This document shows, piece after piece, positions 42,128 through 59,173 of a stretch of 64,000 bases of DNA. Below the pieces are notes generated by a model. That model did not search any database. It was not told the DNA's origin and saw nothing but the letters and a program-made list of their open reading frames with translations. A program made the position numbers and the translations under genes. Location: IMG/VR virus record IMGVR_UViG_3300028805_000002, one strand, 5' to 3'. Source of the stretch: an uncultured virus (IMG/VR IMGVR_UViG_3300028805_000002). Its lineage: Duplodnaviria > Heunggongvirae > Uroviricota > Caudoviricetes. The stretch's first letter is position 1. Each line of letters opens with the position of its first letter.

Positions 42128-42154
42128 AGTGTACTGCCTCTCTTTCCTTTTTAT

Positions 42155-43288: not shown

Positions 43289-43290
43289 AC

Positions 43291-43482: not shown

Positions 43483-43546
43483 GTTTTATTTATTTTCTTT
43501 TTATCGCTTGTATTATTGCATATAAGAAATCACGCAGATGTTGTGG

Positions 43547-44245
43547 TTACTTTCGTTTGTTTCTTTCTATTATCTTCTTTATCCATTCCGACGGAATTAA
43601 AGGAACTGTTACTCGTTTTAATCCCGTGGTTGGATAGAGTATGAGTGCTTGACCATACATTGGTAAGTCCTCACATCCATTGACATCTATTATGTTTCTT
43701 GAGTGCTGTGCCCTTGCAGTATGCAATCCTATGATTATTGCAAAGTTGACCTTTATTCTCGTAGGAATTACAGATGCAAGCGGACACTGTGTAGCGCAGA
43801 TTACTTGAACACCTGCGGCACGTCCCATTTGACATATACTTTGTAGTGCGTCCGCGAACTCTCTGCCATTAAGCATAAGTTCTGCCATTTCATCAATTAT
43901 CAGATGAATGGTCATACCGTCCCATTTCTCAAGACCTCTGCGTTCCATATTATCAAGTCTGTCAATGATAGTTCGGCGTAGATAGTCCAACACTACTGTG
44001 ATTTCTCCTGGAGTTTTTGCAAACGCAATACAATGGGCAGTATCTTTATACTTGCTAAACTCCACACGCTTTAAGTCCACTAAAAGCAACTGATGTTCTG
44101 CCGCATCTTCATACAGGATTGAGTTGATTATTCCGTTAAGTATTGTTGACTTACCTGAACCAGTCATTCCTGCAATCAAGATGTTTTTACCGCTTCGCAT
44201 CAGTTCGTCGTATAGTGGTGCTACGACACCGACAAACTCATCCAT
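43547..44245 (-). CDS. FtsK/SpoIIIE-domain ATPase
   Basis: ILIAGMTGSGKS, DLKRVEF, IIDEMAEL, GRAAGV..ICATQ. Confidence 0.88.
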   Translation of the reverse strand: MDEFVGVVAPLYDELMRSGKNILIAGMTGSGKSTILNGIINSILYEDAAEHQLLLVDLKRVEFSKYKDTAHCIAFAKTPGEITVVLDYLRRTIIDRLDNMERRGLEKWDGMTIHLIIDEMAELMLNGREFADALQSICQMGRAAGVQVICATQCPLASVIPTRIKVNFAIIIGLHTARAQHSRNIIDVNGCEDLPMYGQALILYPTTGLKRVTVPLIPSEWIKKIIERNKRK

Positions 44246-45206
44246 TCTTTTCCTCCTTCTTTACATACGCGTTGCCTTCTTTGTCAAGACGAACTCCAAG
44301 AACTTTAAGCAACTGTGTATACCTTGCTCTGTACTCGATTTCGCGGTGCTTTTCTGAGCCATATACATATATCAACTCATTAAGCAGGCTTAATACTTCC
44401 AGCGTTGTCTTCTGTTCATCAGTAGTGCAGAGGTTGTTGTCTGCAATATACTTCAAGCCTGCACTGTCGCTGTAATTGTATTCCTCACAGAGTCCGTCAA
44501 GTCCCTTCTTTTTTGTCTTAACGTGCTCTCCATTACGCTCGGGAATTGTTCTGGACAATCCAGCAGGAACTAGTACGCGTGAGACTTTTGCGTTGTCAGA
44601 ACTGTACGGACTATCCCACCACTTTGCGGCTTCTTTACAATTACCGTCACCAGGACACTCAGAACAACCTGCGGCAGGACAGCCTGCGTGAGTACATCCA
44701 AACAAGAAAGCGTATAACTGAGCATTGGTGAAGTTCTCAGGCAGTTCAGTTCTTTCTTTCTTCCATTCTTCTTTTACCTTGCCTTCGTATAAGTCAAATC
44801 GTGCGGCAAAAACGATGCCATCATAGTGACTGGAATCTCCGCGTGATTTAACGTGGATGCGTCCGTTTGTGCAGACTTCTGTAACTTCTCCAATCCATCC
44901 TTCTTTTGTAACGCCATATACGTTTGCACGCTCATTTCCTATTACCCAGTCTCCAACGTGAAACTCTTTGGGTAACTCAGGGTCCGTGTGTTGTACTAAG
45001 TCAAAGTATTTGGGATTAACCCACGCGTGACAACCCTTATACCCTGTTAGATTTTCTACTCGGATTGTTTCGTCCATTGGTCTACTATCATCAATGTCGG
45101 TGACTGTTCCTTTCCATCCGTCTCTTGTTATACCGTATGGGGCACCGTCGTGGGCGACAATTATATCACCCAAGTTAAACTTTACTGTTGTCTTTTTTCT
45201 TGCCAT
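44238..45206 (-). CDS. Modular protein: two SH3-like repeats, Cys cluster and shared C-terminal domain
   Basis: F.[LV]GD...YG[IV]T..GW.G.V twice; CP..GC..CP...C...WWDSPY. Confidence 0.65.
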   Translation of the reverse strand: MARKKTTVKFNLGDIIVAHDGAPYGITRDGWKGTVTDIDDSRPMDETIRVENLTGYKGCHAWVNPKYFDLVQHTDPELPKEFHVGDWVIGNERANVYGVTKEGWIGEVTEVCTNGRIHVKSRGDSSHYDGIVFAARFDLYEGKVKEEWKKERTELPENFTNAQLYAFLFGCTHAGCPAAGCSECPGDGNCKEAAKWWDSPYSSDNAKVSRVLVPAGLSRTIPERNGEHVKTKKKGLDGLCEEYNYSDSAGLKYIADNNLCTTDEQKTTLEVLSLLNELIYVYGSEKHREIEYRARYTQLLKVLGVRLDKEGNAYVKKEEKNG

Positions 45207-45207
45207 T

Positions 45208-45390
45208 TTACTCTGCCTCCTTGTTTACCATACAGATGTTGATTGTCTTGCACGAATGGCACTTAATCTCTACGATACAATCATTCCTGTCGCTGTGCAT
45301 AATGGACTTACCGAGTTTGTGTCCACAACACACACATCGAATCCATTTATCTTTGCCAATACTCGTGGCATTATTTCTTCGGTTGTACAT
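45208..45390 (-). CDS. Com-like zinc-ribbon protein
   Basis: IRCVCCGHKL...EIKCHSCKTIN. Confidence 0.6.
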   Translation of the reverse strand: MYNRRNNATSIGKDKWIRCVCCGHKLGKSIMHSDRNDCIVEIKCHSCKTINICMVNKEAE

Positions 45391-46237
45391 TTGTGAACAT
45401 CTCCTTTAAAGTCTCTTTGTTATAGTTGTTGTCTATCAGAGTTGAGCAGGAGATGTATGTTGCGTTATTTCCAAACATAGCATCTGCCAGTGCTCTTATC
45501 TCCTCTTTTGAGTAGTCATACCCTAAAGCACGACCTCTTCCACTGCCAATATTTCTTGTTATTGGACTTGTGCCCTGCCAATCGAATCCGATTACTCTGA
45601 AGAACGACGGATGGGTAAGAGGATAACTCATTCTCTTTAAGTCTAACGGTCTATCGCTGGACTTAATCTTGATACACAGAATATCCGTTGTGCCCTGACC
45701 TTTGCTTGTATAGGACTGAACAGCATACAGATTAAATCTATATCCCTGCTTTTCAAGTCCGAGTATCGCACCGAGAAGTGTCTTTCCTGCTTCGATGAAC
45801 TGGTCAACCGTCTTACTACAATTTGCTGTAAGGTCATAGTACACATCAAGAACTTTTGCTTTGATAGGCTTCATCTGTGTATTGAGCATATTCTTAGGAA
45901 CTCCGCTCAGTGCGAGAGGTACAACAGGTGCAAATCCCATAATGTTGTTATCAAATGAGAACCTTGTGCCGTCTCTTGAAGGCACTTTTAACTCGGTCTT
46001 GAACGCATCAACTACAGGCTGATAACCTGACGCGAGCAAGTCAAGCGCCTCCTGATATGTCTTAACTCCGCACCAGTCTTCCTCAAGAGTCTCGTTCTTC
46101 ATATTGTAGATACTGTGTCTAACTGGTCTGGTCTTGCAGTCATTGACCATTTCGTTTACGGTGTTATAGAACTCAATCTTGGCGTCAAGAGAACGCCCTG
46201 TGCCGAGGTCAACTTTCTTTTCTTTGATGATGGACAT
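45371..46237 (-). CDS. VWA-like partner of the MoxR ATPase
   Basis: Directly downstream of the AAA gene; GFAPVVP.AL.GVP, HPSFFR motifs. Confidence 0.55.
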   Translation of the reverse strand: MSIIKEKKVDLGTGRSLDAKIEFYNTVNEMVNDCKTRPVRHSIYNMKNETLEEDWCGVKTYQEALDLLASGYQPVVDAFKTELKVPSRDGTRFSFDNNIMGFAPVVPLALSGVPKNMLNTQMKPIKAKVLDVYYDLTANCSKTVDQFIEAGKTLLGAILGLEKQGYRFNLYAVQSYTSKGQGTTDILCIKIKSSDRPLDLKRMSYPLTHPSFFRVIGFDWQGTSPITRNIGSGRGRALGYDYSKEEIRALADAMFGNNATYISCSTLIDNNYNKETLKEMFTNVQPKK

Positions 46238-46251
46238 ATCTCACATCCTCC

Positions 46252-47463
46252 TTACATCTTCTCCCAAACGTGTCTTAACGCGGTCTTGTAGTCAGAGTTA
46301 GGCAACTCATTTGTTATGAGGTTAACATCGTCCTTCTCTAAGTCCTTGACAAGACAATATCTGATGGCATCTTCCACAGACATAACATCCAGCACATTTG
46401 CGAGATTGCTGATGGCACGATAAGAAACGATGATGCCAACACCAACTTTCTTTGCGGCGGCTCTAAATGCACGGCAGAAGTCTGCGAGCATTGTACTTCC
46501 TGCGAGACTGTCCTCAATCTCCTTGCAGTAGTCAACAGGAATCGGGAGGAATCGGTCAAGGCTGGCCGCGTCTAACTGATTTCTTCCTACGTACTGATAG
46601 TCAGCGCCGTGACCTGTCGTATTGCCTGCGGCAACTACTCTGAAGTCGGGATGTGCTTCCTTATAACCGATAGGTGCCGGGAAGTCAAAATACTTGTTTG
46701 CGATTGCGGCGTTGAGAATGTTAAGCACTTCAGGAATTGACGCGTCCATTTCATCTAACATAAACAGACCGCCTTCCGTGAAGGCTTTGAAAAACTGAGT
46801 GGGCTGGTAATTACCCATAGCGTCAGTAAAACCAGTCAACTTATACTCCTGAGTTACGGCGTTGGTGAAGTAGAACTTCAAACCAAGCGCCTCAGCAACT
46901 TGTTTGCAGAGTACGTTCTTTCCTGAACCAGCAGGCCCAACTAAGAACACAGGAATATTCTTGCTGACCAAGTGAAGAACATTGTCGAACTGTGCGTGGA
47001 GAACTCCGTGAAGTTCTGCCTTTTTACCGCTGACATCGACCGTTATCTTTCTCTCAATCGGTCCGTACTCCTTGCTGATGAAGTTTCTAACTTCTTCCTG
47101 CACGTTGCCCATTATATCTTTCTCGATGTTTTCGGCCTGTGTCTGTACGATTAAGTCAGCGACAGCCTTGCCGATAATATCGAGGCTTGTTCCGAGATTT
47201 TCTTCGGAAGTCTTAAATGCGTATCGAGGAACTTCGATTGCCTCGAAACATTCCTCAAATCTGTCTGCTAACAGACCTTCTTCCAGATGTTCATCTACCC
47301 ACTTTCTAATGTGGTTCTTGACGTAGATGTAATCACCACCAATCCTTTCCAGACAGACAAACACTGTTTCCTGTGCGTCCTTGTTTGTCAGAGAAATTGC
47401 TGTGCCTGCCTGGTCATTGTAGAAGCGGATAAGCATTTTTGCGGTATCGAGATTTCTTCTCAT
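46252..47463 (-). CDS. MoxR/CbbQ/CobS-like AAA+ ATPase
   Basis: GPAGSGKN, MLDEMDAS, HPDFRVVAAGNT, LDAASLDRF. Confidence 0.88.
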   Translation of the reverse strand: MRRNLDTAKMLIRFYNDQAGTAISLTNKDAQETVFVCLERIGGDYIYVKNHIRKWVDEHLEEGLLADRFEECFEAIEVPRYAFKTSEENLGTSLDIIGKAVADLIVQTQAENIEKDIMGNVQEEVRNFISKEYGPIERKITVDVSGKKAELHGVLHAQFDNVLHLVSKNIPVFLVGPAGSGKNVLCKQVAEALGLKFYFTNAVTQEYKLTGFTDAMGNYQPTQFFKAFTEGGLFMLDEMDASIPEVLNILNAAIANKYFDFPAPIGYKEAHPDFRVVAAGNTTGHGADYQYVGRNQLDAASLDRFLPIPVDYCKEIEDSLAGSTMLADFCRAFRAAAKKVGVGIIVSYRAISNLANVLDVMSVEDAIRYCLVKDLEKDDVNLITNELPNSDYKTALRHVWEKM

Positions 47464-47523
47464 TGAATTAGTCCTCCTATGGAATCGTTATTATTTTGTT
47501 TGTTGCGCTTGCAACTCTTAATC

Positions 47524-47552
47524 ATTATACTAAACGATTGAATGGATTGCAA
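47524..47552 (-). promoter_or_regulatory. SigA-type promoter with ATCGTTTAG spacer motif
   Basis: Minus strand TTGCAA-17nt-TATAAT. Confidence 0.75.
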
Positions 47553-47632
47553 GCGTTATTTCTTGCGCCATTCAATCGTGTTGTATAGTTGTTGTATAGT
47601 TATAGTAGATTAAATGTTGCTCCGAGGAGCAA

Positions 47633-47905
47633 TCACTCAATCTCCAGTGTATCATCCTCGTCGGATGTGTCATCCTGGTCCATTGAATGAATAAGGAGCA
47701 TCCTTGTAAGGAGCAACGGAACAGGAATACCTCTCTCCTCAGAGAGTCTGTTTATCAATTCGTAGGCAAGCGCCTCGATTGCATTACCATCTCCTGCGAT
47801 GTAGAGTTTGCACTCTACCTTGTTGCTAAGTTCACCGTGAACGTAGCCAAAGCCGTCCTTGTTTCTGAACTTCTCAGAATCCTTAAGCAAATCCTTTTTT
47901 TCCAT
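47633..47905 (-). CDS. Hypothetical protein with acidic tail
   Basis: RBS AAGGAGG. Confidence 0.55.
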   Translation of the reverse strand: MEKKDLLKDSEKFRNKDGFGYVHGELSNKVECKLYIAGDGNAIEALAYELINRLSEERGIPVPLLLTRMLLIHSMDQDDTSDEDDTLEIE

Positions 47906-47958
47906 TTTAACTTCCTCCTTTGGGATAGTTTATTTGTGTCAGCGGTCGTTCCACTGTA

Positions 47959-48714
47959 TCACTTCTTAGATGTGGTCTTTCTTGTGGCCGTCTTCTTAGC
48001 GATAGGCTTCTTAGTCTTGGTCGTAGACGCAACAGGCTTCTTTGCAGATGCCTTCTTGCTTTCCTTCTTACGATACTTTCCAAGATACTTCTTGAAAGGC
48101 TCATAGTAGCCATAGTTGTTTCCAAGCGCCTTCTTGGCGATGCAAAGTGCGAGACCCTTTTCTGGGTCATACTTCTCTCCTTCACCGCACTTAACTACGG
48201 TCTTTGTATCGTCATTCCAGAATACGATTGTCGCTGGCGCATTGAAGATTACGTCCTTAATGCCGTTGGACAAGTCTTCTGGACAGTTTGATGTAGTATG
48301 GAAGGGGTCAAATCGTTCTGACAGTACCCACACACCTGCGTCGTTAAACCCTGGGCCTTTAACTTTTATTTTCTCTGCGCCATCGCCACAGGTATCGACA
48401 TCTACTACTACGCCAACCCATCCGCACTTAGTCTTACCGTATGCGTCTGCGCTCTTGTTGCCTATTACCCAATCTCCTCTTTTAAACTTTCTCATAACAG
48501 AGCCTGCCTTTCTCTTTTCCTCTTCGGTCGCTAATCTAAAATGTTCGGCTTTAACTGTGGGCTTAAATGTACCCTTTGCGTTTGTGAGTTGTATGGTATT
48601 ACCGCTGTCACTCACCCAAATAACTTCTCCAGTCCAGCCCTTTCCTGTAACCGAATAGGCTTCTTCTGCTGCCTCGGTTCCTGTAACGATGTCTCCTACC
48701 TTAAATTTGTTCAT
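47959..48714 (-). CDS. Two SH3-like repeats, VIFNAPATIVFW domain and Lys-rich tail
   Basis: FK.GD.V.G...Y..T..GW.G.V twice; DPEKGLA; histone-like K/A/T tail. Confidence 0.65.
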   Translation of the reverse strand: MNKFKVGDIVTGTEAAEEAYSVTGKGWTGEVIWVSDSGNTIQLTNAKGTFKPTVKAEHFRLATEEEKRKAGSVMRKFKRGDWVIGNKSADAYGKTKCGWVGVVVDVDTCGDGAEKIKVKGPGFNDAGVWVLSERFDPFHTTSNCPEDLSNGIKDVIFNAPATIVFWNDDTKTVVKCGEGEKYDPEKGLALCIAKKALGNNYGYYEPFKKYLGKYRKKESKKASAKKPVASTTKTKKPIAKKTATRKTTSKK

Positions 48715-49112
48715 ACTGTTTCCTCCTTGTACTTTTCATATAGGTCAGGGAACTTTCTCTTGAAGTCCTCTGTAAGCGTATCGTGTTCCATAATCCAATT
48801 GATTATTTCTTCTTCACGACTGCTGTCCTCTGTCTTCTCTACCAGAGATGCAACCACAACTCCGTGTTCAGGAATGTACGCTCTTACGCGGTCGATTGCC
48901 TGTTCTTTGCACTCGAACACAGCCTTTTCCACTCGCTTTGTTCGACACGCCTCGGCTAACTCATACATATCCTTGCCAGACGTTGTGAACTTTCCTTTGA
49001 GTTTTTCACTTGTAGCAGGAATCTCCTCGGGGTTAATCGGAATGTTGAACACTCCAAACACTGTGCCCTGCTTTCTTGCGGTGACACTCTCGTAAAACTT
49101 AACTTCTACCAT
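48711..49112 (-). CDS. Hypothetical protein
   Basis: RBS AAGGAGG before MVEVKF. Confidence 0.55.
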   Translation of the reverse strand: MVEVKFYESVTARKQGTVFGVFNIPINPEEIPATSEKLKGKFTTSGKDMYELAEACRTKRVEKAVFECKEQAIDRVRAYIPEHGVVVASLVEKTEDSSREEEIINWIMEHDTLTEDFKRKFPDLYEKYKEETV

Positions 49113-49293
49113 TTGACGTTTCCTCCTTTTTGATTTCATTTATGCTGTCTATGGTATACTTGTCTGTACCTGTAATCTTGCTCCAGTTAGCGAGCACCCA
49201 CTTCTTACTAGGCGCTCGCACAAATCTTGTGCCTACTATCTGTAATGCACCATTACTTCCGTGATATGCCACGGCGTATCTCTTTCTTGCCAT
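49099..49293 (-). CDS. Hypothetical protein
   Basis: RBS AAGGAGG. Confidence 0.55.
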   Translation of the reverse strand: MARKRYAVAYHGSNGALQIVGTRFVRAPSKKWVLANWSKITGTDKYTIDSINEIKKEETSNGRS

Positions 49294-49459
49294 TTGTTTT
49301 CCTCCTTATCTTCTCGTATGCCCACAAGTACCAGTCTATAAATCGCATTAGCGGGTACTTCCGATAGAAAGTCTTTAGATAGACCTTTATCGCTTTCTTG
49401 TCCAGATTTTCATAATCAAGTCCAACATCGGCGTTGCACTCTTTTCTTGTGGCTTTCAT
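49253..49459 (-). CDS. Hypothetical protein (exact start uncertain)
   Basis: AAGGAGGTG RBS-like element at the start region. Confidence 0.4.
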   Translation of the reverse strand: MKATRKECNADVGLDYENLDKKAIKVYLKTFYRKYPLMRFIDWYLWAYEKIRRKTNGKKEIRRGISRK

Positions 49460-49468
49460 TACACCTCC

Positions 49469-50314
49469 TTAGTATTTTGCGGCTTCCTCAAATGTGAGGA
49501 AGAAGTGTATTCCAGATGCACATTCGTGCCATCTGTTTTCCTCAAATGGATGTTGAGGCACTACTGTGTCTCCTATTTTGTATTCAAACAGTGAGTTGTA
49601 GTGGCTTACTGCGTGGTAGTTTTTCGCGTCTTCTTTCGAGATTTTGTCACCTGATTTTCGATAGAAGCCTTTTACTTTTGCCGCGCTTGCACGACACTTT
49701 CTAGATGTGCTGGAAGTTCTCTTGGCACTGGCAGGAATGTATAACTCTACAACAATCTCCCTGCCTGTCAATTTATCCACACACTGTTTATACGCGGTGA
49801 AGCCTCCTTTTTCAGGACACATAATCGGCATACCGTTTCTAATAGTTTCCGTTTTGAGTGCCTCGTCTAAGTCTGCGCGACACATTTTGGCAAATCCGAA
49901 ATCGGTCTGGTCAAGGGTTGAATCCCCAAAATAGGCGTCAGATACATCTGCCTCAGTGAACTTTGCATACGTTAGGTCGCAATTAGTGAATCTGGAACGT
50001 GTTGCTGTTGTACGGCAAAAATACACATTTCGTAGGTTGCAATCTACGAATCTTGCTCCGTCTAGGTGAGCCCAGTCTATTGAGGCAAACGTAAATGTGC
50101 AATTCCTAAATAACGCATCTTCCATAGAGACGTGGCTTAGGTTACAATGAGAAAAGTTTACATTAGTGAAAACGATGCCTCGAATATCCAAACCGCGAAG
50201 GTCCAGTCCACTCGCATCTACGAAATCTATTCCAGACAGGCGAGCACTTCCTATTCTTACGCGCAGAAGTTCCGCGCAAAGTTTTTTTCTTGATACCTTT
50301 GGTAGACGTCCCAT
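49469..50314 (-). CDS. Pentapeptide-repeat protein with C-terminal DUF5758-like domain
   Basis: A.F..C.L pentapeptide repeats; CPEKGGFTAYK...RKCRAS...ECASGIHFF. Confidence 0.8.
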   Translation of the reverse strand: MGRLPKVSRKKLCAELLRVRIGSARLSGIDFVDASGLDLRGLDIRGIVFTNVNFSHCNLSHVSMEDALFRNCTFTFASIDWAHLDGARFVDCNLRNVYFCRTTATRSRFTNCDLTYAKFTEADVSDAYFGDSTLDQTDFGFAKMCRADLDEALKTETIRNGMPIMCPEKGGFTAYKQCVDKLTGREIVVELYIPASAKRTSSTSRKCRASAAKVKGFYRKSGDKISKEDAKNYHAVSHYNSLFEYKIGDTVVPQHPFEENRWHECASGIHFFLTFEEAAKY

Positions 50315-50327
50315 TTTGTGTCTCCTT

Positions 50328-50576
50328 TCATTTCAGTTCCTCGGGCATTACTACATCAAGTCCACGGTTAGCACGTACCATACGGAGTAACACTCTTCCG
50401 TATATATCGTCCTTTCCTGTGAGTATGCGGTTGCACCAGTATTGTGCTCGGTGGTCTATCCACATACCATCGAGTATCAGGCTGTACTTGTCGTGGTAGA
50501 GTTTGTTTATCCTAGCGCAATACTTCTTATAACAGCGCCATCGGCGTTCCATTCGTTTAACAGATTCCTCTGTCAT
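50328..50576 (-). CDS. Basic hypothetical protein
   Basis: RBS GAGGAGG. Confidence 0.5.
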   Translation of the reverse strand: MTEESVKRMERRWRCYKKYCARINKLYHDKYSLILDGMWIDHRAQYWCNRILTGKDDIYGRVLLRMVRANRGLDVVMPEELK

Positions 50577-50578
50577 AT

Positions 50579-50872
50579 TTATCCCTCCTCTCTATTACCT
50601 ACTGTTGATACAGTCTTCGTGTCACACCATATTCCGCCTGACTTGCTTGCGCGTCTCATACAACGAAGGAAACAGTCCATCAGTCCTACGAGTGTGTCGT
50701 TGTCGGTATATCCCATCTCGTCGATTTCCTCGAGAGTTGTTTCCGATGTAATGTCGCCATCTGCAACACCACACATCAGCCAACCCATAAAGATGTCCTC
50801 GTCATTGATACATCTTGCAATGGTCTCCATAGCCTTTACCAGTTCTGCCCTTCTCTTCGTTTTACTGTCCAT
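50579..50872 (-). CDS. Hypothetical protein
   Basis: INDEDIF..WLMCGVADGD motif. Confidence 0.6.
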   Translation of the reverse strand: MDSKTKRRAELVKAMETIARCINDEDIFMGWLMCGVADGDITSETTLEEIDEMGYTDNDTLVGLMDCFLRCMRRASKSGGIWCDTKTVSTVGNREEG

Positions 50873-50972
50873 ATCTATTACTCCTCTCTTTTTAATTCCC
50901 AGACAATCCAGAGTTGAACTATCTTAAATACAGCGAGCACTACACTCGCCATAAACGTCATATCAAGTGGGC

Positions 50973-51290
50973 TCATACAATTTCATCCTCCTTAAGCCAT
51001 TCTGGTATGTGAACTGCATCCTTGTAGTCAAACACGCGGATAATGGATTTCAGCGTGTTACAGTCCTCGGTCAGTTTCCTGTTAAGTGCTACCTTAACAT
51101 AGTTGAGTGGTTCCTCTTCCATTGAGAGAAGCGCCTCTTCCATCTGCTTATACAGATTACAGAATATGCCTCTGTCATCGAAGAACAGGTTGTCCGAGTT
51201 GCGTCCTTCTCTATTGTACTTATTGAAGTATCTGCCATAGAGCAATCTCAGGCAGTCTAAGTGGATTTCTCTCCAAGAGGGTTTTGGCAT
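50973..51290 (-). CDS. Hypothetical protein
   Basis: RBS AAGGAGGTGA. Confidence 0.6.
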   Translation of the reverse strand: MPKPSWREIHLDCLRLLYGRYFNKYNREGRNSDNLFFDDRGIFCNLYKQMEEALLSMEEEPLNYVKVALNRKLTEDCNTLKSIIRVFDYKDAVHIPEWLKEDEIV

Positions 51291-51302
51291 AGTATCACCT
51301 CC

Positions 51303-51575
51303 TTAACAACAAACGAGTGCTTCCCACTCGTGATTGGCTTCCACTTCCTTATAGACTTCATCGAACAGGTCGTAGAAGTCTGCCCAGAACATCGTCTCAG
51401 GACAGATGCGATTGCACGCCTTGTCTCTGTACTCCTGATAGATGTCCAATCTTTGAAGTGTCGTGAGGACGTTTCCCTCGTTCAGTTTATCTACCTCTGC
51501 CAGCAATATTCTTGTCCAGCACTTCTCTGCAACCTTGCGGATGCGCTCCTTGATTTCCTCTTTAGTGATTGTCAT
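51303..51575 (-). CDS. Hypothetical protein
   Basis: RBS AGGAGG before MTITKEE. Confidence 0.55.
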   Translation of the reverse strand: MTITKEEIKERIRKVAEKCWTRILLAEVDKLNEGNVLTTLQRLDIYQEYRDKACNRICPETMFWADFYDLFDEVYKEVEANHEWEALVCC

Positions 51576-51637
51576 ATTAGGTTTCCTCCTGTGTATTTTC
51601 TGTATTCTTTCCAAGCCAAACTTCTTCAAACAGATAT

Positions 51638-51967
51638 TCAAACTCCTCTAACATTTTGTGCCTCCTTAGCAACGGTCTTCCTAAAGAGACAGTCTACATA
51701 ACAGCCTCTTTCCACGTCTTTGTATACGTCGATTCCCTTAACTTCAGGAAAAGCCTCGAACACAAGCGGCAACGCGCGTTCCAGTGACTTGAGTGAGGAG
51801 AAACTGTGCCAGGTGTACCAGTCATCAGTTGCCCACTCACAGAAGCCATCAGGCATTTCCCTATCGAACTTGTGCAGGATGTCCCACATTTCATCACTGG
51901 TTCTCTTGCACGGGTCTATCTGAAACATCATAGACCACGACACCTTCTTAATCTTACGCTTGCTCAT
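51638..51967 (-). CDS. Hypothetical protein
   Basis: RBS AAGGAGG before MSKRK. Confidence 0.55.
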   Translation of the reverse strand: MSKRKIKKVSWSMMFQIDPCKRTSDEMWDILHKFDREMPDGFCEWATDDWYTWHSFSSLKSLERALPLVFEAFPEVKGIDVYKDVERGCYVDCLFRKTVAKEAQNVRGV

Positions 51968-51977
51968 ACTTCCCTCC

Positions 51978-52253
51978 TTATGCCTGTGCGAGTATTTCGC
52001 CATCTTCATCTACCATAGCGATAAGACCTTCAAACACTTCCGTGTTCTCGATGTCACCTACCGCTACCCACTCACATCCTTCCTCAGGGTCTGCGTCATA
52101 TCCGACCATACTTCCGATGGTGTTTATGGCTTCCTGATACTGAAAGTACCTGTGCTCACACGCTTCTTCCTCAGGAAGATGTGCGAGTTTGTAAATTCTG
52201 TCAGGCACTTCCACTTCCTTAACTACGCTGACGATTACTCTAACCTTTGCCAT
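51978..52253 (-). CDS. Acidic hypothetical protein
   Basis: RBS AAGGAGG. Confidence 0.6.
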   Translation of the reverse strand: MAKVRVIVSVVKEVEVPDRIYKLAHLPEEEACEHRYFQYQEAINTIGSMVGYDADPEEGCEWVAVGDIENTEVFEGLIAMVDEDGEILAQA

Positions 52254-52769
52254 ACTAATTTCCTCCTTTGGGATATTCTGTCTATACTGACAAGGTAGTG
52301 TTTTGTATGTTCCCGATTGTTTACTTGTGGTGTTCCGCTCTGTATTGTCTAAGTTCCTTTAGTGTACATCTCTGAAGCCAGAGCCGCTTCTGCTGTTCCT
52401 TGATGGCGCGTTCTATCTTACCTCTTCCCATATATGCACTCCCTGGTAAGATACTGGCGAGTGCCCGGGACAATCTTCAGACAGGTCTGAAGTCCGTTTC
52501 TCTTAATGAGTTCCCGATACGGAATCTTGTATGTGATTGTGGATTTTGCTGTGTTGGTCATAGTGTAATTTCCTCCTAGGGGATATTTACTTCCCTATTC
52601 CTATCTTCCCATTTATATGTTCCCATACAAAACACTCCCTTGCCTGTATAGGCTGAGGGAGTGCTGAGTTGTGCGCTTTAAAGTGCCCAGTTGCGTGTCG
52701 CGTGTTTATGCGGGTTCACGCGTTTCCGTTCTGTCTACCGTATGGTGTCTTCCCGTATGAGGCTATGCC

Positions 52770-53273
52770 TCAGAATCCTAAGACCTCTGCAACACCGTCC
52801 CAGTTCTCTACCTTGAGGGCATATTCATTTGCCCAACCCTCGTGATGTTCCCAGTCGGAGCGTGTAGCCTTGAGTTCCTTGCCAGGGAAAACCCAGGCGC
52901 CGTCCTTGAGCGGTCTGATACGAGCGTAGGCTGTCTTGTCTCCCTCTACCTTAGAGATGAGGATGTGTCCCTTCGCGTTTGTTCTGAAGATGTACTTGTC
53001 CTTCGGGATGTCTGCTAAGAAGGCGTCGGCAGTGGGGTGCTTGCGTTCCTTCTTCTCTGCGGGTGCTTCCGGTGTCGGCTCTGCAGGTGTCTGTTCTGCG
53101 GGAATCTCTTCCTGAGTCTGTTCTGCGAGTGCCTTCTGTTCTGTCTGATATGCTTCAAAGATAGGCATAAAGTCAACTTTGGGCATCTGTTCTGTCTTGC
53201 CGTCAACTATGCGGGCAAAGTATGTCTTGTGATTTGTCTTGTATTCTGTGCCGTTGTATGTAAACTGTGTCAT
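52770..53273 (-). CDS. Early hypothetical protein with Pro/Glu linker
   Basis: RBS AGGAGGA before MTQFTY (the ORF-track start at 53345 is probably too long). Confidence 0.65.
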   Translation of the reverse strand: MTQFTYNGTEYKTNHKTYFARIVDGKTEQMPKVDFMPIFEAYQTEQKALAEQTQEEIPAEQTPAEPTPEAPAEKKERKHPTADAFLADIPKDKYIFRTNAKGHILISKVEGDKTAYARIRPLKDGAWVFPGKELKATRSDWEHHEGWANEYALKVENWDGVAEVLGF

Positions 53274-53355
53274 AATAAAATCCTCCTGTGATTTTGTAAA
53301 ATTGATTTTTTGATGTGGTGCAACTGAACACTTTAACGCGCACAACTCAGTGGCG

Positions 53356-53764
53356 CACGTTTTCGAGTGCTTTACTTTTGCGCATTGTTATATGCGCTTA
53401 GAAGTACAGGTCATCGTGTAAATCTTCGTGTAATTTGCGCGCGCTTGTAATTACGATTGTGTCGTTATACTCATCATTGACGCAAGTACGATAGAATAAG
53501 AAGAAATCATCAAATTCGGCACAATGTGAATTGAGTTCTGTAATACAGTCAAATATTATCTTTTCGATATTTTCAAATTCGCTGTAAAAGTCTTTATTGA
53601 TACAGCACAAAAAAGCATTACAATTTATCGCTTCATCAAATTGTGCTAAATTGTATTTTTCAAGAATTGAATAGTAGAGTTCATAATTTTTTGTCATTGT
53701 CTTTTATCTCACTTTCATTAGATTTTTTGAGACAATGCGCAAAAACAAAACACTCGAAAACGTG
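53356..53764 (-). repeat. 33-bp inverted repeat pair (53356-53388 / 53732-53764) enclosing ORF 53398-53697
   Basis: 30/33 identity; the three differences are G-U pairs in the minus-strand transcript. Confidence 0.9.
53398..53697 (-). CDS. First early gene: 99-aa acidic protein with no Gly, Pro or Trp (candidate anti-defence DNA mimic)
   Basis: 20 D/E versus 7 K/R; RBS AAAGTGAG; first ORF of the minus-strand arm. Confidence 0.6.
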   Translation of the reverse strand: MTKNYELYYSILEKYNLAQFDEAINCNAFLCCINKDFYSEFENIEKIIFDCITELNSHCAEFDDFFLFYRTCVNDEYNDTIVITSARKLHEDLHDDLYF

Positions 53765-54700
53765 ATATTTTGCGCGATATTTTGCACTTTGCATACATTT
53801 TGCGCTTAGATAAAATCAATTATCTAAGAATAGAGCGCGCACTTATAAAATACAGATAGACTTTCAAATTTACTCTAACAAACAATAGTGTTTGAGTGCA
53901 TTTCACAGCGTAGTAATGAACAAGACTTCAATACAACTATGCAACAAGTATATTGTCGTTCGCGTTTACTAATAATTCGCGCATAGTGTTTTTCTACTAT
54001 TCGCACTATTTCACAACAGTGCTATTTTATGACTGTTTATAGCAATAAACTCAAAAATCAACTAATTTTATAGTTAGTATTCACATACTAATAACTATTA
54101 TGCAATTCGTTTATCTAGTGAATTATAACAGCACTCGATTATAATAATCACGTACTATATTATTACACTTTACTATCAACACAGCGCAAACGATTAAATA
54201 GTTAAGTCTTGTTTTAGAATGATTATATTGTCGAACTAAAGTGTTAAATAATGCACATTACAAGTTACTTTGAGTGTAAGACAATACACTACACAAAATA
54301 CTTTTATTAGTTTTTTCTTTTGTGTTTTACGTTTTATCACGTTCTAAAACAGTGTCACTAATTACTTAAAAGAAACACAGTGTATTTTTTCAAGTATCAT
54401 TCACTAAACGCGTAAAAGACTAGTGATTTTTATCTGTATTTATTTGTCAAGTTACAGTGTTATTACTTAAAGTATTCGCAACAACTTTTTAGCACTCATT
54501 ACGCGTTAACTCGATATACTCGAATAATACGTTATACTTCAGCGCAAGAACTATAAACAACTAGTGATTATAGAGAACGTATGACTAACTTGTGTATGCT
54601 TGCTAGTTCGTTCTTTTGTTATGCATAGAGTAACGCTTATTAAACGATATTTCAATACAACTTTTGACTTATTTGTTCGATAACGAACAAAAACACGTCA
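53520..54700. other. GG/CC-free tract
   Basis: No GG or CC seen between the GG at 53518-19 and the GG at 54701-02. Confidence 0.9.
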
Positions 54701-54809
54701 GGTTGTTCGATAAATACATTAAAACAATAATAATTTATCATTATTCGATAAACGCTATATAATATGCTTATTATATATAATAAATACGCGTATGCGCATG
54801 GGGTAATAT

Positions 54810-54828
54810 GATAATGATTATCATTTTC
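54810..54828. promoter_or_regulatory. Fur-box-like operator
   Basis: GATAATGATTATCATTTTC versus consensus GATAATGATWATCATTATC (18/19). Confidence 0.55.
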
Positions 54829-55217
54829 AAATTCATACATTAGTCTAGTTAGTATCTTTATATAACAGATTATTAGTGTATAGCGCTGTAACGCTCATAT
54901 TTAACGTATAACGCGCTCTAGCACTTATACACAAGAATTTATATTCACAGCGCACGAGCGCGTCACAGATCAAATTTAAAATTTAAGTTAGCACGCATAT
55001 ACAAGCGCATACACACGGGCATATTTATACGCACGCGCGCGCGCGCACGTACACGGGATTCTCGAACTCTTACGTCGAACTTTGTAGACAAGTATGCGCG
55101 GTGCTTGAAAATAGAGGGGATTGGGCATAAAAGTAATCCTAGAGGTGGGTAGGTCGAGTGTGGTAGTAAGGTCGTTCAAGAACGACAGGAAAGGCGTGGA
55201 AAATTAAAAGTAAAATT

Positions 55218-55236
55218 GAGAATGATTATCATTTTC
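55218..55236. promoter_or_regulatory. Fur-box-like operator
   Basis: GAGAATGATTATCATTTTC (17/19). Confidence 0.5.
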
Positions 55237-55415
55237 AGTTTCAAGGTCGAGGTTTGTAGACAAAGTCTTGACTAATAGTAGGAGTATGTGTTATTTTGTA
55301 TATGTAATTGGAGAGATACAATGTTATCGAGGGTCTCTTAGTAAGTCGCCGCAGGGCGCAGGAACGACGGGTGATTAACAGTATATCTTTAGTTATAGAA
55401 GGATAATATAAATAT

Positions 55416-55676
55416 ATGGAAAATGAAACACTAGCAACTGAAATGTTGCACGAACTGAAATCGAATGGCCGAAGGTGGTTTATAGCATTTCTAGTCGTTC
55501 TAATGCTTTGGTTTGCTACTATCGGTGCGTTTCTTTGGTATATCTCTTTGCCCGTGGACGAAACTTCGGTGGAACAGTATGCCGAAGGCAACGACAATTC
55601 TTTTGTTGGTATAGGTGATATGAATGGCGGCGTATCAGAAAGTTACAAGACGCAGGAGAGCACTTCGCAGTCGTAA
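55416..55676 (+). CDS. Single-TM hypothetical protein
   Basis: LATEMLHELK...WFIAFLVVLMLWFATIGAFLWY. Confidence 0.6.
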   Translation: MENETLATEMLHELKSNGRRWFIAFLVVLMLWFATIGAFLWYISLPVDETSVEQYAEGNDNSFVGIGDMNGGVSESYKTQESTSQS

Positions 55677-55701
55677 GTCAACCCGTAGAAGGAGACACTA
55701 A
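55624..55701 (+). CDS. 25-aa Arg-rich peptide (not in ORF track)
   Basis: MAAYQKVTRRRRALRSRKSTRRRRH; AGGTGA 5 nt upstream; stop 2 nt before the next gene. Confidence 0.45.
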   Translation: MAAYQKVTRRRRALRSRKSTRRRRH

Positions 55702-55703
55702 TT

Positions 55704-56021
55704 ATGGCAGCGGCTGGTCAAACACGTACTATCAAAAAGTTACAACAGGCTCTCCAAATGGAAGGAGAGTTAATTCTTATCTCTACTTCTCAATTCTTTA
55801 GTTTGGAAAAGCAGACCACTGTAACAAGATACCACGTTAAGAAACAAGTTCAATCAGGTGAGAAGTATAAGTCTTCTCAGGTTGAACTTTTTTCTTCTTG
55901 TTCACAAATCCAGATTACTCTCTTTTTAAGAGATTATTATTACGAGATTAAAGGATATGAGGTGCCGCAGGATAATCCTTATTGGTTAGCGGCAAAGAAG
56001 AAATATTTTGAGGAGCATTAA
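55704..56021 (+). CDS. Hypothetical protein upstream of terminase
   Basis: IKKLQQAL...TSQFFS...ELFSSCSQIQI..FLRD; RBS AAGGAG. Confidence 0.65.
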   Translation: MAAAGQTRTIKKLQQALQMEGELILISTSQFFSLEKQTTVTRYHVKKQVQSGEKYKSSQVELFSSCSQIQITLFLRDYYYEIKGYEVPQDNPYWLAAKKKYFEEH

Positions 56022-56023
56022 GT

Positions 56024-56542
56024 ATGGCTGAAAAGAAGAAGAAACCGGGTTATGGTGGAAATCCTAAAGGGTCTGAATATAAACTCTCTATCAGAGAGCA
56101 AAAGTTCGTGTCTCTCTATTTAGAGTACGGTGACCCGAAGAAAGCAGTTGTTGAGGCAAAGTTCAATACTACTGCACCTAGTCAGTACGCTAAGAAACTC
56201 TTGGCTAAGCCGAAAATTCAAAGAGAGATTGCATCACAAATGGAACTCTTTAGAAATGAGTGTATCGCCAGTTCGCAGGAGATTATGAACTTCTACACTC
56301 TCACAATGCGTGGAGAAGTTAAAGACCAGTTCGGTCTTGACGCTACTCTTTCTGACAGACTTAAGGCGGCTGATGCGCTCGCTAAGAGACAGATTGACGC
56401 CAGAGCACTTGCAGAGAAGGCGAGTGACAATGAGTTTAAGGTTACACTTACTTGGGGTGCACCTGCTACTCCTGAGCCTAAACCTGAAGAAGATTTAGAT
56501 GACACCGCTGATGAAGAGGAAGACATAGATGCCGAACAGTAA
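56024..56542 (+). CDS. terS: Terminase small subunit
   Basis: LSIREQKFV..YL, IAS.QEI..FYT..MRGEVKDQFGLD...DRLKAA. Confidence 0.85.
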   Translation: MAEKKKKPGYGGNPKGSEYKLSIREQKFVSLYLEYGDPKKAVVEAKFNTTAPSQYAKKLLAKPKIQREIASQMELFRNECIASSQEIMNFYTLTMRGEVKDQFGLDATLSDRLKAADALAKRQIDARALAEKASDNEFKVTLTWGAPATPEPKPEEDLDDTADEEEDIDAEQ

Positions 56543-56924
56543 ACACATCATTATAGACGATAAAGAATATAAGGTGCCTATCGTTGAGTTACAGCGAAAG
56601 GGCGATATTCTTGACTTGACTGCGAACAGAACAGAGGATGGTGTTCTTCACAGAGATGTTATAGGTACATACTATAACTACACGCTTACAATCGGAATTA
56701 TTAACGACCCAGAGTTGTATGAAGAGTTGTGGAACGTCTTAACTGCACCCGTGGCAAGTCACTGGATAGAGTTGCCACACGACCACGTGAGATTTGAAGG
56801 CTACTTCGGTAGTTGTAAAGATAATATTCAGATGATAACAGAAGATGGCTATAAGGCAAAAGGACTGTCTTTCAATCTTGTTGCCACTAGAGCCGCAAGG
56901 ACGGCAGTAAATGGCGGTAATTAA
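56529..56924 (+). CDS. Structural protein resembling distal-tail-type proteins
   Basis: ANRTEDGVLHRDVIGTYYNYTL...GLSFNLVA pattern. Confidence 0.45.
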   Translation: MPNSKHIIIDDKEYKVPIVELQRKGDILDLTANRTEDGVLHRDVIGTYYNYTLTIGIINDPELYEELWNVLTAPVASHWIELPHDHVRFEGYFGSCKDNIQMITEDGYKAKGLSFNLVATRAARTAVNGGN

Positions 56925-58170
56925 CGTAAACTTACAAGAATGTATCATACCTATGTATAAAGAAGTGCTCCAAGATGTCTTGGAGCATAAACATACTCAC
57001 TTTATTTTTCCTGGCGGAAGAGGTAGTTGTAAATCTTCTTTTGTAGGCATAGCAATACCTCTTGTACTTGTGAATAATCCGACAGTACACGCAGCCTGCT
57101 TCAGAAAAGTAGGAAATACTATTCAAAACTCTATCAGAGCACAAATTGAGTGGGGAATTTACAAATTAGGTATGCAGGACCTGTTTAATATACCTGCCTC
57201 ATACGCAAATCCGATAACTTTTAAGCCTACTGGACAAAAAATCTACTTCTTAGGTCTCGATAAACCAGCAAAAATCAAGTCAATTAAGCCAAAATTCGGC
57301 TACATAGGCATTACTTGGTTCGAGGAGTTGGACCAATTCGCTGGCGAGAATGAAATTCGTACTGTAACACAGTCTACAATGCGTGGTGGCGATAAATATT
57401 GGGACTTTAGAACATTCAATCCGCCGATTTCAAAGAATAATTGGGCAAATATGTATGCAGATAAGGCCGCTATTTACTCTAAAAGTAGTCTTGTTACCCG
57501 AAATACGTATCTTTCAGTACCGCCAGAGTGGCTTGGACCACAGTTTTTTGAAGAAGCGGAAGAACTTAAAGTACTTAATCCACGCGCTTATGAGCACGAA
57601 TATCTTGGAGTTGCTACAGGAACGGGCGGAGATGTCTTTGAAAACGCCTGTGAACTCGATATGTCAGGTATGATTGACAACTTCGACCATATCTATAACG
57701 GAATTGACTGGGGTTTTGCAAGAGACCCGTTCAGATTTGTTCGTATGCACTTTGACGCAAGAAAACTCGACCTATATATCTTTGACGAGTTTTCTACCTA
57801 TAAGACACGTAACGAGGACACTTTCCACAGACTATATGATGAAGAGTGCAAAATATCCCGAGACGAATTGGTAACAGCCGATAGTGCGGAAGAAAAATCT
57901 GTTGCAGACTTTAGGGCGTATGGTGCGTTTATCAGACCTGCTAAGAAAGGTCCTGACAGTGTTCGTTATGGAATTAAGTGGTTACAGGGACTTAGACACA
58001 TCTATATAGACAAAAAACGCTGTCCTGAGACGTTTTATGAGTTCATAAACTATGAATATGAGCGAGATAAGGACGGAAACTTCATTAGTGCGTACCCCGA
58101 TGCAGACAATCATAGTATCGACGCGGTACGCTATGCACTGGAAAACTACTGTAACCGCAGAGGAACATAA
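56911..58170 (+). CDS. terL: Terminase large subunit (PBSX family)
   Basis: GGRGSCKS, WFEE, TFNPP, GIDWG, ADSAE, NHSIDAVRYA. Confidence 0.95.
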   Translation: MAVINVNLQECIIPMYKEVLQDVLEHKHTHFIFPGGRGSCKSSFVGIAIPLVLVNNPTVHAACFRKVGNTIQNSIRAQIEWGIYKLGMQDLFNIPASYANPITFKPTGQKIYFLGLDKPAKIKSIKPKFGYIGITWFEELDQFAGENEIRTVTQSTMRGGDKYWDFRTFNPPISKNNWANMYADKAAIYSKSSLVTRNTYLSVPPEWLGPQFFEEAEELKVLNPRAYEHEYLGVATGTGGDVFENACELDMSGMIDNFDHIYNGIDWGFARDPFRFVRMHFDARKLDLYIFDEFSTYKTRNEDTFHRLYDEECKISRDELVTADSAEEKSVADFRAYGAFIRPAKKGPDSVRYGIKWLQGLRHIYIDKKRCPETFYEFINYEYERDKDGNFISAYPDADNHSIDAVRYALENYCNRRGT

Positions 58171-58220
58171 TTTAGGCTTTATCCATTTACTTCTATCTAC
58201 AAAAGTTATAGAATTATGAT

Positions 58221-58838
58221 ATGAGCGAGATGTTAAACCTGCTAACTATGGCGTTTGACGGTGTTGGTGAGTACAACATACCGCAAATTAAGCCAGTTAC
58301 TGAACTCTATGTCAAAGATTGGATAGGGTTTAACTTCGTAGCGTCCACAAGAAAGCAACGAGAAATCACAGGCGTACATTTTTACATAGACGATTATCAA
58401 TTTGAGCGTGTTTGGAACTTTCCTTGGCGCTTTTCCAAGACTTTTAACGAGTTCGGAGCGATAATGACGCCCGATTTCTCAACTTATCTTGATTTTCCTA
58501 AAGCAGTTCGCATATTTAACCACTATCGTAAGCATTGGTGTGGCGCTTATTGGCAAGAAATGGGCGCAACAGTCATTCCTACGATAGAGTGGGGCACTGA
58601 AGAGGACTATTCTTGGTGTTTTGATGGTGAACCAGAAGGAGGAATAGTGGCTGTTTCTAATGTAGGCATTATGCGAAGTAAAGAACTGCGTGAAAATTAT
58701 ATGAAAGGCTACAAAGAGATGCTTACAAGACTTCAACCAAAGGAAGTTTTAATGTTTGGGCATATCTTTGATGATTATCCTGGTCCTGTTCATTACATTC
58801 ACTATCAGCAAGCAAAGGGTGAACAAGGAGAAGAATAA
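58221..58838 (+). CDS. DUF4417-family protein
   Basis: GVHFYIDDYQFERVWN, TPDFSTY, WQ..G..VIPTI.W, CFDG. Confidence 0.8.
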   Translation: MSEMLNLLTMAFDGVGEYNIPQIKPVTELYVKDWIGFNFVASTRKQREITGVHFYIDDYQFERVWNFPWRFSKTFNEFGAIMTPDFSTYLDFPKAVRIFNHYRKHWCGAYWQEMGATVIPTIEWGTEEDYSWCFDGEPEGGIVAVSNVGIMRSKELRENYMKGYKEMLTRLQPKEVLMFGHIFDDYPGPVHYIHYQQAKGEQGEE

Positions 58839-59173
58839 TGGCGAACAAGGCAAGATACTACGGATTGGCAAAAACAGAGCAAAAAGATATGAAAAAGAGA
58901 GCGTCAGAGACCCCGTTTATTAACGTCGAGGAACTTACGCCGTGGACTGTTTACTCTGTTTTAGCACTTTATCCAACAATAGATGCGTCCTCGTCTCAGA
59001 CAGCAACACGCAGAATGAAGGAAGAACTGATAAAAAACGGGTTTAATGGTAAAATAGAAGTGAATGGTAGCAGTATTTCAGACGGCACAAACACTTATGT
59101 TTTAACTAAAACCAGTTCTAATGGCATAATGATAGTAAAGGAAACACACGAAGAAAAGAGACGTAAGAGGTAA
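58838..59173 (+). CDS. Hypothetical protein
   Basis: Coupled ORF before the portal. Confidence 0.55.
   Translation: MANKARYYGLAKTEQKDMKKRASETPFINVEELTPWTVYSVLALYPTIDASSSQTATRRMKEELIKNGFNGKIEVNGSSISDGTNTYVLTKTSSNGIMIVKETHEEKRRKR

Follow-up and report, generated by a model that had tools for sequence, protein, structure and literature searches.

The window analysed here is a 64,000-nucleotide stretch of DNA from an uncultured tailed phage (IMG/VR record IMGVR_UViG_3300028805_000002), and it contains a tract of about 1.2 kb (positions 53519 to 54700) in which neither strand carries a single GG or CC dinucleotide, where ~51 would be expected. The tract stands at the head of the minus-strand arm and takes in most of the first gene of that arm (gene 1), its ribosome-binding site (RBS) and the untranslated DNA upstream of it. 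We favour, with a probability of roughly 40%, the reading that the first transcription unit has a recognition-free, "stealth" beginning in this tract, which would serve the first, probably anti-defence, genes. A count of 0 against ~50-100 expected dinucleotides, kept without sequence conservation, is among the strongest local compositional constraints in a phage genome known to us, and it would still need an explanation if the mechanism turned out to be a different one.

Extent of the GG/CC-free tract

On the plus strand, one GG starts at 53518 and the next at 54701, leaving a gap of 1183 bp without GG or CC; a preliminary description of this DNA, made from the sequence letters, had reported the same absence for 53520 to 54700. 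It had also noted that plus-strand CC is missing from 53287 to 55137, and the flanking CC dinucleotides were indeed located at 53285 and 55138. This extended tract (53287 to 55137) is equivalent to a leftward transcript without GG, and about 20 plus-strand GG starts persist at its flanks. The strict tract has a GC content of 29% (A405 C191 G155 T430), from which 20.3 GG and 30.9 CC are expected. Over 20,000 mononucleotide shuffles of the strict tract, the sum of GG and CC averaged 51.0 (standard deviation 6.1) with a minimum of 27, and zero was reached in 0/20,000; scaled to the window-wide observed/expected ratio of 0.80-0.83, the Poisson probability of a zero count is ~9e-19. Counting thus agrees with the earlier estimate that tens of GG/CC should have been present. 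The runner-up GG/CC-free gaps in the 64-kb window measure 215 bp (54802-55017, adjoining the tract), 176 bp and 176 bp, and for any other dinucleotide pair the largest gap in the window is at most 229 bp.

G and C are still common in the strict tract as GC, CG and GCGC, as had been remarked before, with 42 CG and 40 GC against 25 expected. Wherever two or more G/C bases adjoin, they alternate strictly, for example GCGC or CGCGC. In 22 other intergenic segments of the window, the observed/expected ratio of GG and CC is 0.83, equal to the genome-wide value, which indicates that the void is a property of this locus and not of non-coding DNA generally. Its placement between the minus-strand arm (39340-53697) and the terminase operon (TerS at 56024, TerL at 56911) is as first described, and the tract layout likewise confirmed that the depletion runs across coding sequence, RBS and non-coding DNA.

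Two origins of the void were ruled out. A search for repeat arrays found just two tiny ones, both outside the tract, and an assembly artefact is excluded by RNA-library contigs from another sample that carry the identical sequence with zero differences.

Composition is shared by close relatives

Searches with TerL yielded 19 loci each in viral and in metagenome contigs, with several records common to the two sets, and the loci with enough upstream sequence were scored for the void. The closest one, L028 (TerL identity 87%), has a complete void of its own, a 1668-bp gap with 0 against ~103 expected dinucleotides at 31-37% GC. The voids of two others are leaky. L005 (TerL 83%) shows gaps of 465, 433 and 199 bp with observed/expected counts of 1/62 for CC and 15/53 for GG, and L016 (TerL 81%) shows gaps of 369, 261 and 183 bp with observed/expected counts of 4/17 and 4/14. 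L003 (TerL 85%) begins with a 265-bp free stretch at the contig end, and L006, also recovered as the complete genome G001 (TerL 86%), retains a ~500-bp AT-rich remnant with 4 against ~13.5 expected. The void is absent from L007, L008, L009, L010, L012, L013 and L014 (TerL 67-80%), and the complete relatives G001, G002 and G003 have it nowhere, with largest gaps of 241, 119 and 175 bp. The proposal that relatives keep a void at the syntenic locus therefore held for the closest ones and failed for the more distant ones.

The tract sequence diverges quickly between relatives. Similarity of the window to L028 in this region is confined to 53691-53744, 54880-54992 and the DNA to the right of 55200, and no similarity to L005 or L016 was detected left of 55044. 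Composition is thus conserved without sequence, which supports a constraint acting on the nucleic acid as such and not on a protein or a motif, as the preliminary description had supposed. Close relatives thus keep the RBS solution, a stem bracket around the first gene (both described below) and the composition, and exchange the content. Searches of viral contigs based on TerS and on the gene 1 family returned no relatives. No DNA similarity of 53300-55300 was found to 50,697 GenBank phage records, and protein searches of GenBank phages with TerL and PolA recovered just relatives of <50% identity.

Gene 1, its Shine-Dalgarno sequence and its stem

Gene 1 (53398 to 53697, minus strand) was delimited as an open reading frame (ORF) with homologues and encodes a 99-aa acidic protein (pI 4.26; 20 Asp plus Glu, 7 Lys plus Arg). 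Except for its last ~120 nt it lies inside the strict tract. Its three homologues share 65-75% identity with 55 invariant columns, which shows that gene 1 is a real gene. The protein contains no Gly, no Pro and no Trp, so that its combined fraction of these residues, zero, is the lowest among the 43 ORFs of the window (median 0.112). Gly and Trp are missing altogether from the first-gene proteins of the window, L028 and L005, which have 0, 1 and 3 Pro, respectively; no significant similarity was found between the window and L028 proteins, and the first gene of L005 looks different again. An AF2 model of gene 1 reached a predicted local distance difference test score (pLDDT) of 78.5. Gene 1 has no match in Pfam, PHROG or NCBIfam, and fold searches gave none either (best Foldseek E value 0.27; best VIA Z score 6.0, to unrelated HAD-cap domains).

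The Shine-Dalgarno (SD) sequence of gene 1, GAAAGUGAG (53708 to 53716, minus strand), was read from the sequence ten bases upstream of the AUG and contains no GG. It could pair with a Firmicute anti-SD as GAAAG(U)GAG, given what we take to be the 3' end of Firmicute 16S rRNA, and it may be regarded as the canonical GAAAGGAG interrupted by an inserted U that splits the GG. The sequence GAAAGTGAGAT is also found upstream of the non-homologous first genes of L028 and L005.

A 33-nt long-range stem, 91% complementary, brackets gene 1 on the minus strand, with its 5' arm at 53732 to 53764 and its 3' arm at 53356 to 53388. It is present in the minimum free energy and centroid structures (z -3.3). 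The 5' arm shares bases with a local hairpin (53687-53702 / 53730-53745) in which the gene 1 start codon is paired, and the block 53691-53744 at the gene 1 start is 86% identical to L028. An equivalent covarying stem surrounds the first gene of L028 (L028:6270-6720; z -6.4), with arms that differ around a common GCGCATTGTC core. In a related strain in run X5, a contig jumps from 53401 to 53732, exactly between the stem arms. The bracketed gene 1 has the look of an exchangeable cassette or of an RNase III-type processing site, or of both.

The next gene, gene 2 (52770 to 53273, minus strand; 167 aa), lies just outside the tract and has a canonical AGGAGG RBS at 53282-53287. Its GG and CC counts are ordinary (25/32 and 45/43 observed/expected).

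The untranslated leader

The ORF scan, an RNA contig and folding together delimit an untranslated, non-coding leader of ~0.85 kb (53765 to 54606, minus strand) that cannot be aligned among relatives; the ~0.9 kb upstream of gene 1 holds no ORF of more than 43 aa. The RNA evidence comes from two RNA libraries of one sample in one study, and is expressed as contig depth, a crude and unstranded measure without a time course. By this measure, an RNA-library contig at 53407-54606 has a word depth of 47.8 and another at 52686-53317, over gene 2, a depth of 82.3, and the other contigs across 49000-59000 do not exceed 10.6. Cover is absent over 54678-55316, a gap from which we draw nothing. A promoter scan returned 14 promoter-like sites against 11.8 expected from shuffles, so that no promoter can be named; from the end of one RNA contig, we would guess that leftward transcription starts near 54.62 kb. 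The contig ends at 53353 and 53728 flank the stem arms, a hint that would fit cleavage of a polycistronic early RNA at the stem.

Leader RNA from the minus strand folds better than shuffled sequences do (20 of them; z -4.2), unlike that from the plus strand (z -0.75). In L028, one half of the leader folds strongly on both strands and the other half on neither (z -1.2 and -0.8). ATG is ~2-fold depleted on both strands of the leaders (53700-54620; L028:6660-8000; L005:1345-2617), which CATG avoidance explains only in part; in the leader sense, observed/expected AUG counts in the three are 9/18.8, 12/26.7 and 12/22.8.

Proposed role of the tract

GG and CC are absent absolutely and from both strands alike. 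Sequences that are not homologous share this absence, it prevails over the demands of the RBS and of protein composition, and it does not extend beyond the head of the first operon. These properties together argue for selection on duplex DNA against "GG on either strand". We propose defence recognition as the selective agent. In such a scheme, leftward transcription would start from a regulatory hub at ~54.6-54.8 kb and proceed through a ~0.9-kb untranslated leader into gene 1 and then gene 2. GG, CC, CATG, GATC and AGCT would have been purged over the promoter-proximal leader and all through gene 1, with G and C left only as singles or as alternating (CG)n. A GG on either strand is the minimal feature for recognition by NGG-type Cas9 and by type I systems with a CC protospacer adjacent motif (PAM), and GG/CC is also a component of many restriction sites avoided genome-wide (such as CCGG, GGCC and GGWCC). 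A locus offering no PAM and almost no restriction site would escape cutting, binding and spacer sampling, and its intact template would allow the first products, probably counter-defence proteins, to be made. Under this scheme the tract DNA presumably enters the cell or acts first, and gene 1 would be an anti-defence gene.

The genome is strongly shaped by restriction avoidance. Over the whole window, observed/expected counts are 0/145 for AGCT, 1/193 for GATC, 2/173 for CATG, 12/71 for CCGG and 20/84 for GGCC, and many 5- and 6-mers are near zero outside the tract (among them GCAGC, GAATC, GATATC, ATTAAT, CATATG, AGTACT, GAATTC, ATCGAT, TTCGAA). Pooled over three voids, CATG occurs 0/14.6 times, GATC 0/6.1 and GTAC 5/20.8 (0.24), the last being tolerated elsewhere. 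AGCT occurs 0/12.0 times in the voids of the window and L028, yet 11/10.3 times in that of L005. The sets of avoided sites differ in part among relatives. The early arm also encodes a pentapeptide-repeat protein fused to DUF5758 (49469-50314, minus strand); pentapeptide-repeat proteins are known DNA mimics, and this one is a further candidate counter-defence gene.

The preliminary description had proposed a PAM-free leader that protects an anti-CRISPR gene. This idea is compatible with the results and forms part of the explanation that we favour, for which it also speaks that Cas9 scored above cut-off in 12/143 genomes of the tentative host family, although the specific version in which a PAM is the avoided feature is rather less likely than the broader proposal. 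We also consider, tentatively and with somewhat less confidence than in recognition avoidance as such, that rumen phages of one clade came to possess a "stealth cassette" defined at the level of dinucleotides. Its promoter-proximal 1.2-1.7 kb would be written in an alphabet without GG and CC, including a swappable stem-bracketed first gene, and would deliver counter-defence proteins while being neither cut nor sampled for spacers; the cost of that alphabet would be visible in the GAAAGUGAG SD sequence and in first proteins without Gly or Trp and nearly without Pro.

Several points weigh against recognition avoidance as the cause. Elsewhere in the genome there are ~4,200 GG/CC, so that a local void would be protective only if the tract enters or acts first or is the main source of spacers. 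The terminase (Terminase_3, with an SPP1-like portal) suggests headful packaging with permuted ends, which would leave no fixed first-injected end. Gene 2 shares the high-depth RNA unit yet has normal GG/CC, and the closest complete relative, G001, has merely the AT-rich remnant of ~500 bp. Avoidance alone does not explain the 2-fold excess of CG and GC or the 40-fold excess of GCGCG. A PAM would not be expected to leave a strand bias, but the plus-strand CC-free span is longer than the GG-free one and the CC:GG ratio in L005 is 1:15. The fold searches revealed no recognisable anti-CRISPR or anti-restriction fold in gene 1. The host is a guess, the tentative family coming from a 54% lysin match on a 1.5-kb contig of a metagenome-assembled genome, and no spacer in the 143 genomes matched window:44000-63999 at E<=1e-5. 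Four short matches in G010 are weak, and the two inspected are not in repeat arrays.

If the proposal is true, motif avoidance can concentrate on a single small, critical locus and become complete there despite the needs of translation initiation and protein composition, and this would be the first rule of defence evasion to dictate amino-acid usage and RBS design in a defined genome segment. Long dinucleotide-void tracts would then be a simple signature by which to recognise first-expressed or first-entering DNA, and anti-defence genes not yet described, in uncultured phages. They would also hint at the PAMs and restriction systems that matter in unknown hosts, and be a natural template for defence-proof leaders in phage engineering.

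Comparison with known systems

The nearest parallel is the first-step-transfer region of phage T5. T5 infection resists restriction-modification, CRISPR and Ssp if their sites are absent from that region, and sites near the first-entering end raise phage sensitivity, according to the part of the source consulted (PMC10644984); the region also has a large untranslated stretch rich in repeats and palindromes, as described in the consulted part of 10.1101/866236. In the window, as in T5, a stretch at the head of the putatively first-expressed genes is free of defence sites, and T5 carries small, poorly conserved host-takeover or anti-defence genes in this region. The ~0.9-kb untranslated region of the window and its operator-like palindromes (54673-54752) may correspond to the untranslated stretch of T5, which has an injection stop signal with DnaA boxes. 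In contrast, T5 lacks particular 6-bp sites, whereas the window lacks a whole dinucleotide class over 1.2-1.7 kb, into its RBS and amino-acid usage. T5 injects its DNA in two steps and has terminal repeats and a fixed entering end, whereas the phage of the window is known from contigs alone and its terminase resembles the headful kind. It is also unrelated to T5 in sequence and presumably has Firmicute-type hosts.

Depletion of PAMs across phage genomes has been published (PMC4246573, in the part consulted), including that of the type I-F CC PAM (PMC12174588, likewise). There too, under-representation of GG/CC-type PAMs is taken as CRISPR evasion, but the published cases are modest and statistical, whereas depletion in the window is absolute at one locus with a ratio of 0.82 over the rest. 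A term search of the available part of PMC12174588 found no local void, and we found no literature on a local PAM-free or dinucleotide-free tract in a limited collection of papers. Site-free first-expressed DNA and PAM avoidance are known already; a dinucleotide void so complete that RBS design and amino-acid usage follow from it is, to our knowledge, undescribed.

In phage T7, the first gene behind the strong early promoters is that of the small acidic protein Ocr, double-stranded stems are the sites of early mRNA processing, and slow transcription-driven entry lets counter-defence proteins be made before vulnerable DNA is exposed. The window resembles T7 in its small acidic first protein and perhaps in the processing of early RNA at a stem. 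Gene 1, small, strongly acidic and the first ORF of the early arm, is in this respect like the DNA-mimic anti-defence proteins (Ocr, AcrIIA4-like), but neither its sequence, Pfam or PHROG searches nor its fold relate it to Ocr, and we know of no dinucleotide void in T7. Modell and colleagues (2017) reportedly observed that the phage end injected first is the main source of new spacers for type II-A systems; a PAM-free entry zone would blunt spacer acquisition from that end.

Alternative explanations

The strongest alternative, though an unlikely one, places the constraint on RNA. In this case an abundant, processed and partly structured ~0.85-kb early RNA would lack GG, and with it SD-like or CsrA-type sites and cleavage by GGAG-type endonucleases, and would have few YC dimers, to prevent Rho loading, and the DNA void would be the shadow of the RNA alphabet. 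The high-depth RNA-library contig at 53407-54606, the folding confined to the minus-strand RNA, the conserved covarying stem around gene 1 and the ~2-fold depletion of AUG in the leader sense all fit this idea. So do the contig ends at 52686, 53317 and 53353, which would be discrete RNA ends and which carry what we take to be Illumina adapter remnants, and so does the longer reach of GG avoidance in the transcript sense (1853 nt) compared with that of CC, a bias repeated in L005. One RNA requires only a one-strand rule, however, and both GG and CC are absolutely absent. The plus-strand CC-free span reaches 55137, past the end of the RNA contig, and gene 1 avoids GG although it requires a ribosome. 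The leaders cannot be aligned among relatives, half of the L028 leader has no folding signal and its other half folds on both strands, which points to DNA palindromes. Rfam offered no family match.

A structural or regulatory DNA element is improbable. AT-rich DNA with (CG)n islands would here bind a protein or change conformation, GG/CC steps being incompatible with this, and the element could act as an injection stop, an origin, a packaging-related or a Z-DNA-prone site. CG and GC are in 1.6-2.3-fold excess in 3/4 tracts (window, L028, L005, L016) and GCGCG is in ~40-fold excess. G and C favour purine-pyrimidine alternation, GA, TC, AG and CT being mostly below expectation. Alternating CG/CA runs are conserved at the right edge, and the L028 leader has palindromes on both strands; the T5 first-step region likewise has a large untranslated repeat-rich region (10.1101/866236, in the part consulted). 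Against this, no common motif or spacing is found beyond GCGC-type words, there is no alignable sequence, the void runs through a protein-coding gene, and most of the tract is non-alternating with AA/TT at expectation. DnaA boxes are impossible in the tract, as their consensus presumably contains CC.

Equally improbable is the model first offered with the preliminary description, in which a CmoA/C5-methyltransferase (MTase) pair modifies C in a CC context. In the version considered here, the pair modifies or hypermodifies C in a context with GG/CC, and the leader stays clear of modifiable sites so as to be readable by host RNA polymerase or safe from modification-dependent nucleases. The window does carry both the void and an overlapping pair (21547 to 23260, plus strand), in which a CmoA-like gene (21547-22284) overlaps a C5-MTase gene (22259-23260) by 26 nt. 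The CmoA-like protein matches TIGR00740 (E 9.7e-46; 156 bits, curated cut-off 193) and phrog_4752 (E 1.4e-72). Alignment of the MTase with its nearest solved relative, M.HaeIII (GGCC; E 1.4e-35), spans the whole protein and takes in the target-recognition region. Three complete relatives without the pair are also without the void, and the GG and CC ratio of the whole window (0.82) is lower than in these void-less genomes, G001-G003 (0.93-0.95), as also holds at codon junctions (GG 0.75, CC 0.58 in the window).

Co-occurrence of void and pair did not extend to the other carriers, however. The order PolA-CmoA-MTase is conserved in 6 other rumen-type phage contigs, with MTases 63-73% identical, and 6/6 are void-less in the part covered, including the complete G009 and also G005, which has the region upstream of TerL. 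The only characterised CmoX modifies GC (PMC12783734, in the part consulted), whereas GC and CG are enriched in the tract. A GGCC enzyme would have 20 sites in 64 kb and cannot explain the loss of all GG/CC; moreover, the window continues to avoid GGCC (20/84), which therefore appears unprotected. By site statistics, avoidance of GCGC, CGCG and ACGT is weaker in the window than in G001, but G002, which lacks the MTase, resembles the window.

The pair resembles the CmoA-CmoX 5-carboxymethylcytosine system of Synechococcus phage S-B43, whose replication module has the gene of a CmoA homologue immediately upstream of a C5-MTase gene, with the two overlapping (PMC12783734, as far as consulted). 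The window enzyme differs from SpCmoX and is closer to M.HaeIII. Its catalytic region reads ATPVCKPFS against GGPPCQSWS in M.HaeIII, with TPVC in place of the SPPC that the same source uses as its criterion. Its motif X reads YIRCSGVP (IRCSGVP at the core) where M.HaeIII and DNMT1 have GNAVP; it lacks the Asn, and its Arg stands two to three residues upstream, apparently outside the HhaI N304 column as placed through these enzymes. In SpCmoX, R350 replaces HhaI Asn-304 and binds the carboxymethyl group. The gene after the MTase is a sliding clamp, and no ligase (CmoY) follows. A link between the void and a CmoA-CmoX system is not supported.

Finally, context-specific hypermutation, in which a CC-specific cytosine deaminase or a similar lesion erased CC on highly transcribed DNA of both strands, would suit the AT-richness of the tracts (29-36% GC against 44-53% in the flanks), their fast divergence and their cover by high-depth RNA-library contigs, but is very improbable, since the expected products CT, TC, AG and GA are at or below expectation in 4/4 tracts, CG and GC are enriched instead, the strands are equally affected within the strict tract, and solutions that preserve function (the U-bulged SD and the intact, conserved gene 1 family) point to selection.

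Genome context and elements at the right edge

The window covers most of a tailed phage of ~72 kb, the longest contig with gene 1 measuring 72,413 bp, and the phage sequence is present in runs labelled sheep gut metagenome. On the plus strand, tail and lysis genes are followed by a replication module (SNF2 helicase, DnaB, primase, SSB, PolA, the CmoA-like protein, the C5-MTase, clamp, clamp loader, RecA). The minus-strand arm (39340-53697) consists mostly of genes without assigned function and includes AAA ATPases, an FtsK-like protein and the pentapeptide-repeat protein. TerS, TerL, a DUF4417 nuclease, the portal and head genes follow on the plus strand from 55.4 kb.

Three copies of TTGTTCGATAA(C/A) lie at 54673 to 54752, at the right edge of the strict tract; the first is a perfect palindrome, TTGTTCG-N4-CGAACAA, and by their form these repeats resemble operators. 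A palindromic TGATAATGATTATCA element at 54809 to 54835 is repeated at 55217-55243, just before the rightward operon, and is shared with L002, L003 and L028; it is a candidate regulator site. An alternating purine-pyrimidine (CG/CA) run at 55026 to 55054, followed by GGG, has counterparts in L028 and L005, with palindromes. CG/CA runs ending in CACGGG-type motifs are found at 54994-55060, L028:7840-7980 and 8080-8170, and L005:2630-2660, and their position between the void and the rightward operon is conserved. The run could be a Z-DNA-prone or packaging-related element. An Rfam search over 53000-56000 at E<=1 gave only two sub-threshold matches to miRNA models (E 0.5-0.9), both on this run.

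Two copies of TTTGTAGACAA, like the CG/CA run, lie beyond the palindromic TGATAATGATTATCA element. The sequence TTTGTAGA(C/T)AAAGT occurs twice (55074-55091 and 55246-55263), ~170 bp apart, and is conserved in L028, L005 and L006; the second copy adjoins a promoter-like TTGACT-18-TATTTT. These copies are likely regulator or terminase-binding sites of the late operon. Within the tracts, CGCAC is biased towards the plus strand, with plus to minus counts of 7:0 in the window (53287-55140), 17:4 in L028 (L028:6352-8180) and 3:1 in L005, against 43:41 over the whole window, and it may possibly serve as an oriented Chi-like signal.

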